Source: a virus
Taxonomy: Duplodnaviria > Heunggongvirae > Uroviricota > Caudoviricetes
Virus record (IMG/VR): IMGVR_UViG_2667527592_000002
Length of the DNA stretch: 64,000 nucleotides
Direction: 5' to 3' (one strand)
The notes beneath the pieces are model-generated. The model searched no databases. It worked only from the letters and a program-made list of their open reading frames with translations, and was not told the DNA's origin. Both the position numbers and the translations under genes were made by a program. This document shows positions 2,347 through 64,000 of this stretch, one piece after another (within the stretch, counting starts at the first letter, position 1; each line of letters opens with the position of its first letter).

Positions 2347-4264
2347 CAATCCTTTACGAATTAATATTCAGTCTACTTTTGCTGATACGATCCCCGGCTA
2401 TATGCCAAGTCGCTGGTCTTCAGAAGAATTAAGCGAAGATGACCTGATTTTTGAGGCGGCGACCTTAGAAGATATTGAGCTTGCCTATATGGGCAATGAA
2501 ATTCTGGTTGTGTCTGACGAAGCTATGTTTGAGTCCATAACTACAACCAGAATTCGGTTAGCTCAAACAATGCGAGCTTTCGTCCGTGCGCTGAATCGTG
2601 GCCTGAATGGTACGAATATTATGGCAGGGACTGATGAAGCTGGGACCGATGAAAATGGACGTAATTGTATTGGTGGTGCGATTATCGGTCGTGTACGTCG
2701 GGTAGCTAATATCCCTGTTTTGACCGCGCAGATACCGCTTACTGACGGGCAGAGTACAAGCATAATTTTCCACTCTCCAACAGCTGACGGGGCAAAAATA
2801 AAGAGTAACGACGAGCTTGTTGCATTTCAGTTTTTACTTAATAAGCGTAACGTAACTCACGTTGTCGCCCCGATTGGTGGGAGAGATGTTTCTTTAAGCC
2901 AGGTATGCCAGGCGCTATCTAATTTGATTGAGCGTAACAGCGAAAAATTTAAGAAAGCAAAAGAGCGCCAGGACAAAATGAAGGCAGATATTGAGAGTTA
3001 TCTCAATGAAGCAGATAAACTGGCAGAAGAACGGTCAATAATGATTGATCAGGTGGAAGTTGCGCAACGTGGGCTGACTGAAAAGCGTGCTGCTCTTACG
3101 GAGATGCAAAAAAAACTTGATGCCCAGAAAGCCATCAACGAGGAATTACAAGCAAAACGCGATAAATTGTTGTCTGCTAAAGGTGAAAAAACGAAAGAAC
3201 GAGCGTTTAGTGACCAGCTGCGACATGTAAAACATAATCTTGCCATTGACGGAAAAACAGTGCTGGATAATGGCGCTGAAGTTAATTATGTCACGTCCGG
3301 CAGTGATAATTTCGTTACGATAGTAGCACCTGAAGGTAAATTCAGTATTGATGCCAGTGCTGTCAAAGGAGGCAGTTTGGCAGATGCTGCAACCAAATTA
3401 CTTAAAGCCTACCGAGAGCATAACGCAGATAAATATAAAGTTGATGTGTTACCAGGCCAGCTGGAAGACTCCGAACTACCACAGACAGACCCCGAAACGA
3501 ACCCAGTATTACAACCAGAGAGCCAAGATGTAGGTAAATACCACTATGCACTTCAATCTCGCCCGGCTGGTGTTGGTGCTGTTCCGGATGGAAATAAAGC
3601 CGTGCTTGATCGTCCTGACCAGGCTGATCAGTATTACGAATATGCTCGTCACGGTATCATTACGTATGACCGTAAACTGACAGATGAAGAAGTCAGCCAG
3701 TACGAGTTGCTTTATCTTCCTGATGAAGATGAGCTGAAAGATTTTGCAGGCCAATTGGTTGCGTCCAGCATGTCGAAACATATTGATGGCTATGTGGACC
3801 TGTTTGGCAGTGACCTGAAAACATTCAAGGCGCAAGTGAAAATTCTTTTCCGCAAAGCGTTTCCAAACGTGGCGTATCCACTTAGTGATGGGGAGAACCT
3901 TTTCATTATGGACGTGAATAACGCCCTTCAAAATCATTCAAGCGAAGTAAAAACAGAGCATGTGGTTGAGCCAGAATCACAACCACAACCAGCACCAGAA
4001 CAGGAGTCGGAGCCAGAAGAAGCGGGTGAATCAGCAAGTGAAGCTGATCAGGAAGCAGATAAAGCGCTGGAGTACCTGAAATCCGTGCCGGAGCAGTTTA
4101 CATCCCGCGATCTGACGGTCATCAGTGCTGAACTTGATCATGTGCAGGAAGCAGCGAACGCTCTAATCAGTGCAGGTCGATACGACGAGAACGAAGCCAC
4201 TGTGGGTGCAGCAGTTGACTACCTGATCAATATTCTGGCTGAAATTCAGCAGGGAGGTGTTTAA
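2333..4264 (+). CDS. DarA-like large protein (positional and size analogy only)
   Basis: about 640 aa, central coiled coil, acidic C-terminal region; sits in lyd-dar-like operon; start 2333 or 2339 uncertain. Confidence 0.35.
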   Translation: MSMINNPLRINIQSTFADTIPGYMPSRWSSEELSEDDLIFEAATLEDIELAYMGNEILVVSDEAMFESITTTRIRLAQTMRAFVRALNRGLNGTNIMAGTDEAGTDENGRNCIGGAIIGRVRRVANIPVLTAQIPLTDGQSTSIIFHSPTADGAKIKSNDELVAFQFLLNKRNVTHVVAPIGGRDVSLSQVCQALSNLIERNSEKFKKAKERQDKMKADIESYLNEADKLAEERSIMIDQVEVAQRGLTEKRAALTEMQKKLDAQKAINEELQAKRDKLLSAKGEKTKERAFSDQLRHVKHNLAIDGKTVLDNGAEVNYVTSGSDNFVTIVAPEGKFSIDASAVKGGSLADAATKLLKAYREHNADKYKVDVLPGQLEDSELPQTDPETNPVLQPESQDVGKYHYALQSRPAGVGAVPDGNKAVLDRPDQADQYYEYARHGIITYDRKLTDEEVSQYELLYLPDEDELKDFAGQLVASSMSKHIDGYVDLFGSDLKTFKAQVKILFRKAFPNVAYPLSDGENLFIMDVNNALQNHSSEVKTEHVVEPESQPQPAPEQESEPEEAGESASEADQEADKALEYLKSVPEQFTSRDLTVISAELDHVQEAANALISAGRYDENEATVGAAVDYLINILAEIQQGGV

Positions 4265-60779: not shown

Positions 60780-61685
60780 ATGAGATCAGTCGCTTTCAAA
60801 AATATCTTCATCTATCGTCTTTCACGCGAAGTTAACTGGGATACCGCAGAAGTAAATGCTGCCCTTAGCAAGTTTGTGTTTACCCCATGCGGTTCTCAGG
60901 ATATTGCTAAAGCTGGTTGGACCCCCGTCCTTGGCGACAACCTCACCCATGAATACAAGGGTTTTCTTCTGATACAGCATAAACGAGAGGAAAAAATCCT
61001 ACCTTCTCAAGTGCTCAAAGAAGAGCTACAGAAAAAAATCCTGAAACTTGAAGAAGAACAAGACAGAAAGCTGAAGAAGACCGAAAAAGATTCGCTGAAG
61101 GATGAAGTGCTTCACTCTCTTCTTCCTCGTGCTTTCACGAGAAAATCAGTCGCTAAAATCCTGATAGACCGAAGCAATCATCTGGTTTTTGTCGAGGCGA
61201 GCAGTGCTAAAAAAGCAGAGGATCAGCTGGCTTTGTTACGGAAATCTCTTGGCAGCTTGCCCGTTGTCCCCTTCTCTCCGAAAGACCCATTAGAACTGAC
61301 CATCACTGGCTGGATTAAAAATGGCTTCCCGAACGGTTTCCGTGCCGGTGAGGAAGCGACCTTAAAAGCATTGCTTGATGATGGCGGCGCGGTCCGCTGC
61401 AAAAAAGTGGACCTGCTATCCGACGAGATCATGAGTCATATAGAAGCTGGTAAGGTTGCAACCACAGTTGCGGTTAACTGGCAAGACCGTGCATTTTTCA
61501 GACTGAATGACGATATGAGTATCAAGGCTTTGTCGTTCAGCGACGAATTGTACGACCAGAACGACGATATTGATCGAGAGGATGTTGCTCAACGATTTGA
61601 CGCTGACTTTATCCTGTTTACTGCTGAATTATCAGCGATGTTCACTTCGCTGGTGGAGGCCGTTGGTGGTGAAGCAGAACGTTAA
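60780..61685 (+). CDS. rdgC: RdgC-like recombination-associated protein
   Basis: ...[12 protein letters not shown]..., ...FTPCGSQD..., ...[21 protein letters not shown]..., ...[16 protein letters not shown]... colinear with E. coli RdgC as recalled. Confidence 0.85.
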
Positions 61686-61698
61686 CAATAGACCTCTT

Positions 61699-62349
61699 AT
61701 GGTGAGTCTTTGTGATTTCACGGGGAAAATGGTCGCCCCCTGGCTGGAGCATGGTATAGATGCTGTTATCGTCGATCCACAACACGCAAAGACCACAGAT
61801 GAGCTGATGCAATCAGGCGCAGTTCTGACACGTATCAGTGCGATTATCGATAGTGATGAAGTTTATGCTTTTCTCCGAAATAATTTACAACGTATTGTGT
61901 TTTTAGCTGGTTTTCCGCCGTGCACGGACCTTGCTGTTTCCGGTGCGCGCTGGTTTGCACATAAGGCTGACAAAGATCCGGTTTTCCAGTTCAAAGCGAT
62001 GCAAGTCGTCTGGCAGTGTTACGACATTGCAAAGATGATTGGTTGCCCGTACATGATTGAAAACCCGGTCAGCCAAATATCGACATTCTGGCGTAAACCT
62101 GATCACATCTTCCATCCTTACCACTTCACTGCATATTGCAAGGAAGACAATTACACCAAAAAAACATGCCTCTGGAGCGGGCAGGGCTTTGTCATGCCTG
62201 ATGCCCTAATGGACGAATCATTAGGCAAGCCAGATAACAGAATCCATACCGCGCCACCTGGGCCTGAAAGGGCTAATTTTCGAAGTGCTACTCCGAATGG
62301 ATTCGCAAAAGCAGTTTTCGAAGCAAATAAGGGGGTGCTCTATGAGTAA
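61699..62349 (+). CDS. short C5-cytosine methyltransferase-like protein (atypical motifs)
   Basis: ...LAGFPPCTDLAVSGARW... (PC motif IV-like) and ...MIENPVSQ... (ENV-like motif VI); only 216 aa; motif I degenerate. Confidence 0.4.
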   Translation: MVSLCDFTGKMVAPWLEHGIDAVIVDPQHAKTTDELMQSGAVLTRISAIIDSDEVYAFLRNNLQRIVFLAGFPPCTDLAVSGARWFAHKADKDPVFQFKAMQVVWQCYDIAKMIGCPYMIENPVSQISTFWRKPDHIFHPYHFTAYCKEDNYTKKTCLWSGQGFVMPDALMDESLGKPDNRIHTAPPGPERANFRSATPNGFAKAVFEANKGVLYE

Positions 62350-63247
62350 ATCTCTAGTAAGCACAGCCATAGAAAGACATGATTCGATGGCGGAAATTAG
62401 CTATATGCGCACCATTCGGACTCCGGATGAATACGAGCGTCCGATCTTCAAATGGGTAGGCGGTAAATTTTCAGAGTTGCCTATAGTGCTTGAGCATCTA
62501 CCACACGGTAAGCGGTTAATAGAACCATTCGTTGGTGGCGGTTCCGTATTTACGAATGCAGGATTTCGCCACAACCTGCTTAATGATATTAACGGTGACT
62601 TGATTAACTTCTATCAGACATTGCAGCGAGAAAGACATTCTCTAGTCACGCTGTCATATAGTTTTTTCCAAAATTACAACAACGCTGACGCTTACCTCGA
62701 AGTGCGTGAGGCATTTAACAGAGGAAAGTATGACCAACTACATCATGCTGCTGCCTTTTTGTACCTTAATCGGCACTGTTTTAATGGCGTAACACGGTAC
62801 AACCAAAATGGCGAGTTCAACGTAGGGTATGGTAAATACAAAGCGCCCTACTTCCCACATGCAGAGATGGAGGCATTTTTGGCTGATGACGTACTCAAAA
62901 ACACTTCCTTTGTATCAGGTGACTTTGCTGGCGTCATCGAGGCGGCTGGTGAAGGCGATGTGATTTTTTGCGATCCGCCGTATGAACCGCTGCCGGATAC
63001 AGAAGGGTTTACCAGTTATTCAGGAAATAGCTTCCGTTTCGACGAACAGAAACGGCTGGTATCTCTATTGGTGGAAGCCCACCAGCGCGGCGCTAAGGTA
63101 GTGATTACAAATAGTGGTGCTCCAAACATCCGTGAACTATATGAAGGAAACGGGTTTAAAGTACATCATATGGCAGCCAGACGGTCGGTTTCCTGCAAGG
63201 CGTCAACACGTGTAGTTGCTAACGATATAATTGCAATAATGAAGTAA
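62342..63247 (+). CDS. Dam-like N6-adenine DNA methyltransferase
   Basis: ...IFKWVGGKF..., ...EPFVGGGSV..., ...FCDPPYEP...; start overlaps upstream gene. Confidence 0.8.
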   Translation: MSKSLVSTAIERHDSMAEISYMRTIRTPDEYERPIFKWVGGKFSELPIVLEHLPHGKRLIEPFVGGGSVFTNAGFRHNLLNDINGDLINFYQTLQRERHSLVTLSYSFFQNYNNADAYLEVREAFNRGKYDQLHHAAAFLYLNRHCFNGVTRYNQNGEFNVGYGKYKAPYFPHAEMEAFLADDVLKNTSFVSGDFAGVIEAAGEGDVIFCDPPYEPLPDTEGFTSYSGNSFRFDEQKRLVSLLVEAHQRGAKVVITNSGAPNIRELYEGNGFKVHHMAARRSVSCKASTRVVANDIIAIMK

Positions 63248-63249
63248 AA

Positions 63250-63277
63250 AACGCCGCAGTAGCGGCGTTTACTTTTT
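63250..63277. terminator. bidirectional hairpin terminator between Dam-like gene and glnS
   Basis: aacgccgc-agta-gcggcgtt flanked by A-run and T-run. Confidence 0.6.
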
Positions 63278-63295: not shown

Positions 63296-64000
63296 TTAAC
63301 CTAACTTCGCCCAGGTATCACGCAGCCCAACGGTGCGGTTAAATACCGGTTTTTCCGCCGTAGAATGGCGGCTGTCGAGGCAGAAATAACCTTCACGCTC
63401 AAACTGGAATGCTTTACCCGCTACCGCTTCTTTCAGCGACGGTTCAGCAAAGCCTTGTTTGATCACCAGCGATTCCGGGTTAATCACCGACAGGAAATCA
63501 TCCGCAGCACCTGGGTTCGGTACACTGAACAGACGGTCGTACAGGCGAATTTCAACCGGCAGCGCATGTGCCGCGCTCACCCAGTGAATAACGCCTTTCA
63601 CTTTACGACCATCTGCCGGATCTTTGCTTAAGGTGTCGGCGTCATAAGTACAGAAGATGGTGGTGATATTGCCTTCGGCATCTTTCTCCACGCGTTCAGC
63701 CTTAATGACGTAAGCATTACGCAGACGCACTTCTTTACCCAGCACCAGACGTTTGTACTGCTTGTTAGCTTCTTCGCGGAAATCGGCGCGGTCGATCCAA
63801 ATCTCACCGCTAAACGGCACCTGACGGCTACCCATTTCCGGTTTGTTTGGATGGTTCGGCATGGTGACCATTTCGCCTTCGCCCTGGTAGTTTTCGATAA
63901 CCAGTTTCACCGGATCGATAACCGCCATTGCGCGCGGGGCATTTTCGTTGAGATCTTCACGGATGCAGGATTCCAGCGACGCCATCTCAATGGTGTTGTC
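63296..64000 (-). CDS. glnS: glutaminyl-tRNA synthetase, C-terminal part (gene continues beyond window)
   Basis: ...[46 protein letters not shown]...[15 protein letters not shown] matches E. coli GlnS C-terminus as recalled. Confidence 0.9.

Follow-up and report, generated by a model that had tools for sequence, protein, structure and literature searches.

A predicted minimal cytosine methylase adjoins dam in a D6-like phage-plasmid and lies in the slot of the C5 part of P1 Dmt

The 64-kb stretch of viral DNA considered here (the window; IMG/VR record IMGVR_UViG_2667527592_000002) is a D6-like, P1-related phage-plasmid, or plasmid-prophage. Close to its end it carries a small methylase gene, whose product we refer to as the small protein, directly upstream of a gene for a Dam-type adenine methylase. 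We consider it likely that the small protein is an active 5-methylcytosine (5mC) methylase which acts alone and is expressed together with Dam in the service of DNA protection and of phage-plasmid functions. The analysis establishes the gene structure and synteny, the family and fold of the small protein, the conservation of its residues and purifying selection, while the enzymatic activity, cofactor, target sequence and biological role within this clade are what we infer. The region is 90% identical at the nucleotide level to phage D6 and 99.9% identical to many E. coli plasmids of 75-96 kb, and all of its E. coli matches (101/101) are plasmid-borne. All coordinates given below are positions in the window, and residues of the small protein are counted from the ATG at 61699.

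A hidden Markov model search had been proposed in an earlier model-made reading of the DNA letters (the sequence-only reading). Such a search matched the small protein to phrog_757 ('DNA methyltransferase') with an E value of 8.3e-78 over residues 2-214, and found nothing in Pfam or NCBIfam. Its sequence therefore places the small protein in a separate phage family, phrog_757, that is without a Pfam or NCBIfam model. This family contains at least 6,930 cluster representatives (90%-identity clusters), and the matches found by tblastn extend over 1,589 phage genomes, T1-like, Dhillonvirus, Webervirus and rV5-like phages among them. The annotations in these phages vary between 'DNA methyltransferase', 'Dcm', 'Dcm-like C5 cytosine methyltransferase' and hypothetical. 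Among the best-scoring 120 relatives listed, lengths are mostly 206-258 aa and nearly all entries are unnamed or 'hypothetical', the exceptions in length being a pair of short fragments, of 179 and 183 aa, and a single call of 305 aa that contains RdgC. The RefSeq/PGAP label of the gene in the window is also 'hypothetical protein' (WP_032153356.1). The small protein has a single domain of 216 aa (226 aa if counted from an upstream GTG), which fits the family size of ~210-250 aa. Fusions of the minimal methylase domain to large helicase-type proteins occur in some uncultured phages, as in the BFVD entries A0A6J5NPY6 (1126 aa) and A0A6J5SE15 (1397 aa, 'Helicase/UvrB, N-terminal') and at loci such as L065:2779-4677.

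The fold of the small protein is that of a class I methyltransferase dependent on S-adenosylmethionine (SAM), closest to the catalytic domains of cytosine-C5 methyltransferases (C5-MTases), with DNMT3A among the top fold matches. The sequence-only reading had staked its case on the presence of a methyltransferase fold, and on this point it stands. In fold and motif style the protein is closest to the DNMT3-type enzymes, the shared style being seen in SL(C/F)D, PC(T/N)DL and (E/Q)RxxxRS. With DNMT3A, DNMT3B and the bacterial C5-MTases M.HhaI, M.HaeIII and 3g7u, on the other hand, it has 7-16% identity and no significant sequence match. At the level of sequence, its ties to canonical enzymes, among them DNMT3A, DNMT1, ZMET2 and M.HhaI, are weak. 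It is ~70-110 residues shorter than these enzymes, and the recognition domain or loop that they have between motifs VIII and IX is cut to ~16 residues.

We compared the motifs of the small protein with those of a canonical C5-MTase. A motif IV Pro-Cys with the catalytic cysteine is present (FPPC, residues 72-75), as is an equivalent of the motif VI Glu-Asn-Val (ENP, residues 121-123), so that the PC and ENV-like motifs of the sequence-only reading are indeed there. The target-recognition domain (TRD) is missing: ~16 residues (162-177) separate the motif VIII-like YTKKTCLW from the motif IX-like PDN, and this bears out the earlier remark that there is no room for a normal TRD. Invariant across 199 family sequences are D26, P73, P74, C75, E121, P123, K154, R195, S196, T198, P199, G201 and F202, and the Asn of ENP is present in 197 of the 199. 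Motif I does not have the canonical FxGxG, since its Phe is replaced by Cys and its first Gly by a bulky residue (C5-D-F-T-G9). Across the same sequences C5 is found in 189, D6 in 186, T8 in 193 and G9 in 185, with L, I, Y, F or V at position 7, so that C-D-x-T-G is a clade-specific form of the FxGxG / DNMT3A SLFDGIATG loop. Because the odd motif is itself conserved within the clade, it is a fixed variant rather than the result of decay; the earlier description of motif I as degenerate is correct in that it is non-canonical, and wrong if decay was meant.

The motif register was obtained by local and segment runs of hhalign with the 199-sequence family alignment against DNMT3A and the phage enzyme CmoX, and these runs inform on register only and are not proof of homology. 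The collinear matches to both proteins are weak (pairwise E 0.007-0.04, probability <6%); at this low probability, the register of motif I, PPC and ENP agrees with both. C75 is aligned to C98 of CmoX, and FPPC to the SPPC of CmoX and the SPC of DNMT3A. The catalytic-domain sequence used for DNMT3A, including its C-terminal part, was checked residue for residue against PDB 5yx2/6f57.

A functional precedent is available from phage K42, which is KarlJaspers-like with 95.4% genome identity to KarlJaspers (bioRxiv 10.1101/2023.08.16.553469). In mutants of K42 that escape retron Ec86, every mutation was within the 711-bp 'Dcm' gene. Expression of K42 Dcm raised 5mC in the multicopy single-stranded DNA (msDNA) of retron Ec86, as determined by LC-MS (liquid chromatography coupled with mass spectrometry), and triggered the retron; K42 Dcm was toxic only with the retron present, and a C82A/E128A/K175A/K176A mutant was inert (bioRxiv 10.1101/2023.08.16.553469). 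The KarlJaspers gene bas06_0055 (Bas06, MZ501090) is likewise 711 bp long and has C82, E128, K175 and K176 at exactly the K42 Dcm positions. BLASTP aligns its product with the small protein over the full length (37% identity, E 2e-42), and in this alignment K42 C82/E128/K175/K176 correspond to C75/E121/K154/K155, of which the C, the E and the first K are invariant in the 199 homologues.

The K42/KarlJaspers 'Dcm-like C5 cytosine methyltransferase' and the small protein are thus alike in family, size class, absence of a TRD and catalytic residues. There are differences as well. Motif I of K42 is near-canonical (FDGSG, kept in the K42-type relatives and seen as SLFDGSG in KarlJaspers) whereas the small-methylase clade has CDFTG, and K42 Dcm gives a weak, sub-threshold match to PF00145 (E 0.27) whereas the clade of the window protein is without a Pfam match. 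Relative to the small protein, K42 Dcm has a 14-aa insert before motif VIII and an insert of a few residues before motif X. It also resides in a virulent T1-like phage and does not adjoin Dam.

Comparison of the small methylase with its D6-like copies gave ratios of nonsynonymous to synonymous substitution rates (dN/dS) of 0.06-0.15, at dS values of up to 1.36, and no copy was found to have a stop codon. The small methylase is not decaying, and to judge from these comparisons it seems to be a functional representative of a phage family that is widespread and poorly annotated. In the mechanism that we propose, it would be a stand-alone minimal C5 methyltransferase with a catalytic core of the Rossmann type that retains motifs I-VI, VIII and X, and with essentially no TRD. 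C75 would attack C6 of the cytosine, E121 would protonate N3, and a methyl group would be transferred from SAM, so that phage or plasmid DNA acquires 5mC. The 5mC would mask the DNA from cytosine-sensitive restriction and, as a side-effect, could trigger sensors of the retron Ec86 type. By analogy with P1, Dam would have roles in packaging, replication and anti-restriction.

A number of observations weigh against this proposal. By sequence, no C5-MTase is reached by either the small protein or a 46-sequence profile. PF00145 is absent even at E <=10 from the small protein and from any of 46 relatives, and Pfam as a whole gives nothing for any of the 46 family members. A profile search of the PDB found no methyltransferase, and Foldseek against the PDB found nothing at E <=0.001. 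The CDFTG of motif I is unlike both the canonical FxGxG and the FDGSG of the K42 enzyme that was tested; with Cys for the adenine-stacking Phe and a bulky residue for the first Gly, SAM binding is not assured. The K42 precedent is itself a preprint in which 5mC comes from one LC-MS comparison, CCWGG was assumed as the target by reference to E. coli Dcm and not by measurement, and the host strain was itself dcm+ (bioRxiv 10.1101/2023.08.16.553469). A literature search for measured specificities in the small-methylase family found nothing relevant. We see a small chance that the CDxTG clade is not an ordinary SAM methylase with sequence specificity, and that it modifies cytosine with low or no sequence specificity, or uses an altered cofactor as CmoX does, or relies on the co-translated Dam as its targeting subunit.

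In the sequence-only reading, loss of activity or repurposing was suggested as a possibility for the cytosine-methylase part. A remnant that is catalytically dead, or that now serves as something else such as a regulatory or DNA-binding subunit, might well have a motif I without Phe and first Gly, no TRD, no Pfam or NCBIfam match and a PGAP name of hypothetical protein, but such a remnant is difficult to reconcile with a dN/dS of 0.06-0.15, with a motif I variant that is conserved and not decayed, and with a nucleophile Cys (C75), an ENP Glu (E121), K154 and a motif X RS pair (beginning at R195) that are invariant in 199 sequences. Moreover, its homologue K42 Dcm is reported to be an active 5mC methyltransferase that depends on the corresponding residues. 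We therefore regard a dead or repurposed protein as improbable.

Between 60780 and 63270, the + strand holds a compact block of three genes, rdgC, small methylase and dam, which is closed by a terminator (Table 1). The first gene, rdgC/hrdC, has the position of P1 hrdC upstream of dmt, and the block is the counterpart of P1 hrdC-dmt. The gene after hrdC in P1 is dmt, whose product is a 754-aa bifunctional methyltransferase made as one fused polypeptide; residues 1-460 are a canonical C5 enzyme (PF00145 E 1.3e-35) with a TRD and the motifs GTPCQ, ENVPG, QRRRR and GNS, and residues 462-753 are Dam. The remark in the sequence-only reading that both activities are fused in P1 Dmt is accurate. Its statement that the order in the window is the opposite is not, since in both elements the slot is downstream of hrdC/rdgC and the cytosine-methylase function comes first and Dam second. 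Unlike P1 Dmt, the pair in the window consists of separate ORFs, two in number, whose frames differ and which share 8 nt, and here the earlier description of a 216-aa C5-MTase-like ORF overlapping a Dam-like gene with DPPY directly downstream was correct.

We also considered fission of P1 Dmt, as the idea of a split pair would imply, and rejected it. BLASTP of the small protein against the C5 half of P1 Dmt gave a best E of 0.9 over 13 residues, which is no detectable similarity, and the families differ (phrog_757 against PF00145). When the pair is compared with P1 Dmt, the fused polypeptide and the C5 homology are missing, and an orthologous Dam downstream of hrdC is present. The lack of similarity to the P1 C5 half and the membership of another family argue, at the level of sequence, that a different cytosine-methylase gene fills the P1 C5 slot, by non-orthologous replacement in the same slot and not by a split.

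The closest counterpart of the pair is found in D6 (MF356679). Its orf64, annotated 'putative DNA-cytosine methylase', is the orthologue of the small methylase with 91% aa identity, and its orf63, annotated 'site-specific DNA-adenine methylase ... similar to C-term half of P1 dmt only', has 97% aa identity to Dam. D6 has the same gene order and an overlap of the 8-nt type, and the neighbours agree as well: rdgC precedes the pair, and glnS follows it on the opposite strand. It is unlike the window in sequence drift only; it has no ATG at the equivalent of 61699 and was annotated from the upstream GTG. A cytosine and adenine methylase pair is thus already annotated in D6, and the feature is real, largely known and an ordinary gene pair, part of the housekeeping and anti-restriction outfit of a known lineage of phage-plasmids. 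In the unannotated genome of Citrobacter phage Omnitron (L089, CP115737.1), one 610-aa ORF at 531-2363 on the - strand is a shorter Dmt-like fusion, with a P1-type canonical C5 N-terminal part and a Dam C-terminal part in the same order as in P1.

In order to place the arrangement in the context of the family, we surveyed the neighbourhoods of 80 related viral loci over a range of 4 kb. A D12-class Dam (the class of the window Dam, see below) is absent in 73 of the 80, and the rdgC-methylase-Dam arrangement is confined to seven D6-like loci. In five other loci, a T1-type Dam lies immediately upstream of the small methylase, and the remaining loci are without an adenine methylase in this range. 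The T1-type Dam belongs to an adenine methylase family distinct from D12, and the loci concerned (L075 and L078-L081, at ~3372-3986) carry relatives of ~43-45% identity. With another partner and the opposite gene order in these loci, the pairing with an adenine methylase has arisen more than once, with different partners. Neighbour clustering across the 80 viral loci revealed no conserved partner gene able to supply DNA recognition, and the commonest real neighbour is a helicase (21/80). The KarlJaspers methylase genes lie on opposite strands, with 6 kb between them. Since Dam is absent near most loci, no other neighbour is conserved and the KarlJaspers genes lie apart, the family works as a stand-alone module, and the coupling to Dam seen here is a lineage-specific arrangement that parallels P1.

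These findings bear on whether the small protein could function only with the adjacent Dam, the two subunits together being equivalent to P1 Dmt and Dam providing DNA binding or targeting. The position of the pair in the place of the fused P1 Dmt, the translational coupling suggested by the 8-nt overlap, the recurrence of C5-Dam fusions (Omnitron), the T1-type Dam directly upstream in five related loci and a Dam N-terminal extension of ~30 aa, for which there is a loose alignment to the inter-domain linker of P1, are all compatible with this idea. It is nevertheless unlikely, because 73 of the 80 loci have no D12 Dam nearby, the KarlJaspers genes are separated as described, and K42 Dcm gave its phenotype when expressed alone. 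If Dam-dependence were true, the pair would be a two-piece analogue of P1 Dmt.

PPC is common among ordinary C5-MTases. The invariant FPPC and R195 of the small-methylase family were nonetheless the reason for a comparison with CmoX, an enzyme which transfers carboxymethyl from carboxy-SAM (Cx-SAM) and is defined by SPPC together with an Arg that replaces the Asn of motif X (PMC12783734). CmoX of Synechococcus phage S-B43 (PDB 8YF3) has 372 aa, passes PF00145, has SPPC and is encoded beside cmoA and cmoY, whereas the small protein has FPPC and no PF00145 match, and cmoA and cmoY are not in the window; when the window was searched by tblastn with CmoA and CmoY of S-B43, nothing scored below E 0.09. 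The invariant R195 is set by hhalign on either G349 or R350 of CmoX, with zero confidence, and this register is therefore ambiguous by one residue. A G-R-S is likewise found in motif X of DNMT3A, which is a genuine 5mC enzyme that uses SAM, and this, together with the absence of cmoA and cmoY, lowers the weight of a CmoX-like reading. That the enzyme moves a non-methyl group such as the carboxymethyl of Cx-SAM, or acts on tRNA (as Dnmt2) or single-stranded DNA, is very improbable on these grounds and in view of the commonness of PPC and of a relative reported to give 5mC.

The start of the small methylase is probably the GTG at 61669, from which the protein would have 226 aa. Of eight D6-like copies, just the closest relatives have ATG at 61699, the codon there being GTT in D6 and GCG in another copy (L012), whereas a GGAGG at 61655-61659 followed after 9 nt by GTG 61669 is conserved in 8/8 copies; this difference in conservation is the basis for preferring the upstream start. 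The length of 226 aa from the GTG is that of the D6 annotation and of the gene-called cluster P0001, and ATG 61699 is the start chosen by PGAP. The GTG start gives an overlap of 17 nt with the end of rdgC. At the other end of the gene, the overlap ATGAGTAA and an AAGGGGG ribosome-binding site immediately 5' of the dam start imply that the small methylase and dam, which occupy different frames, are translationally coupled, and with the GTG start all three genes of the block look translationally linked. The Dam frame is open for 57 nt 5' of its ATG, with an alternative in-frame GTG at 62285, and a +1 shift within the overlap would give a P1-Dmt-like fusion. A slippery site is absent, and nothing supports a frameshift fusion.

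The Dam gene was assigned with curated models. It matches PF02086 (E 2.5e-56; 191.7 bits, cut-off 22) and TIGR00571 (248.3 bits, cut-off 114.85), and FxGxG is followed by DPPY, as in D12-class enzymes; with the E. coli Dam equivalog model it scores 239, below the cut-off of 441. Dam is 66% identical to residues 462-753 of P1 Dmt (295 residues aligned) and 97% identical to D6 orf63, with a dN/dS of 0.10-0.17. These sequence identities mark it as orthologous to the C-terminal half of P1 Dmt, and since a GenBank note states that P1 Dam methylates GATC, it most likely methylates the adenines of GATC as well. PGAP flags Dam as a pseudogene, 'incomplete; missing N-terminus' (RefSeq NZ_CP027309.1 52899-53717, L088). 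Since the ORF is intact and purifying selection acts on it, the flag looks like an artefact of the N-terminal extension of ~30 aa.

Table 1. Features of the rdgC-small methylase-dam block and motifs of its two methylases (window coordinates)
Feature	Position	Strand	Evidence
rdgC/hrdC	60780..61685	+	Pfam RdgC E 1.4e-101; D6 orf65 annotated 'similar to P1 hrdC'
Conserved Shine-Dalgarno GGAGG (61655-61659) and GTG 61669, probable small-methylase start	61655..61671	+	kept in 8/8 D6-like copies
Small methylase ORF, 216 aa, phrog_757 / phage 'Dcm-like'	61699..62349	+	ATG 61699 to TAA 62347-62349
Motif I position, SLCDFTG	61705..61725	+	read from sequence; placed on DNMT3A SLFDG by hhalign
Motif IV, FPPC (F72-C75), predicted nucleophile C75	61912..61923	+	P73, P74, C75 invariant 199/199
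Motif VI, ENP (E121-P123), ENV equivalent	62059..62067	+	E121, P123 invariant
Motif VIII-like YTKKTCLW (Y152-W159), with K154, K155	62152..62175	+	K154 invariant
Motif X-like RSATPNGFAKAV, resembles DNMT3A GRSWSVPV	62281..62316	+	R195, S196, T198, P199, G201, F202 invariant 199/199
ATGAGTAA, 8-nt overlap of dam start codon with small-methylase stop codon	62342..62349	+	read from sequence
D12-class Dam, 301 aa	62342..63247	+	PF02086, TIGR00571, identity to P1 Dmt and D6 orf63
Dam FVGGG	62528-62542	+	read from sequence
Dam DPPY	62972-62983	+	read from sequence
Bidirectional intrinsic terminator between dam (+) and glnS (-)	63249..63270	.	9-bp stem, T run on both strands

A promoter scan gave sites no more numerous than in shuffled sequence. 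According to the P1 record, hrdC-dmt of P1 is under the control of a C1 operator. The consensus of the P1 C1 repressor operator, ATTGCTCTAATAAATTT, had no match with <=3 mismatches anywhere in the window, and regulation of the block thus probably differs from that in P1. Right after the methylase block, glnS (glutaminyl-tRNA synthetase) occupies 63296-64000 on the - strand and runs past the end of the window. It is full length in D6 (orf62) and reported across all D6-like elements, and is possibly a maintenance or fitness gene.

The annotation gap is real: a family of at least 6,930 clusters, found in ~1,600 phage genomes and built on a C5-methyltransferase core, is without a Pfam or NCBIfam model and has one experimentally supported member. 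The family illustrates how compact a cytosine-methylating enzyme can be, and the target specificity of such a TRD-less family bears on phage methylomes, restriction evasion and the activation of retron Ec86-type defence. That unrelated cytosine-methylase genes share one slot in P1-like and D6-like elements argues for selection on the paired function of cytosine and adenine methylation.

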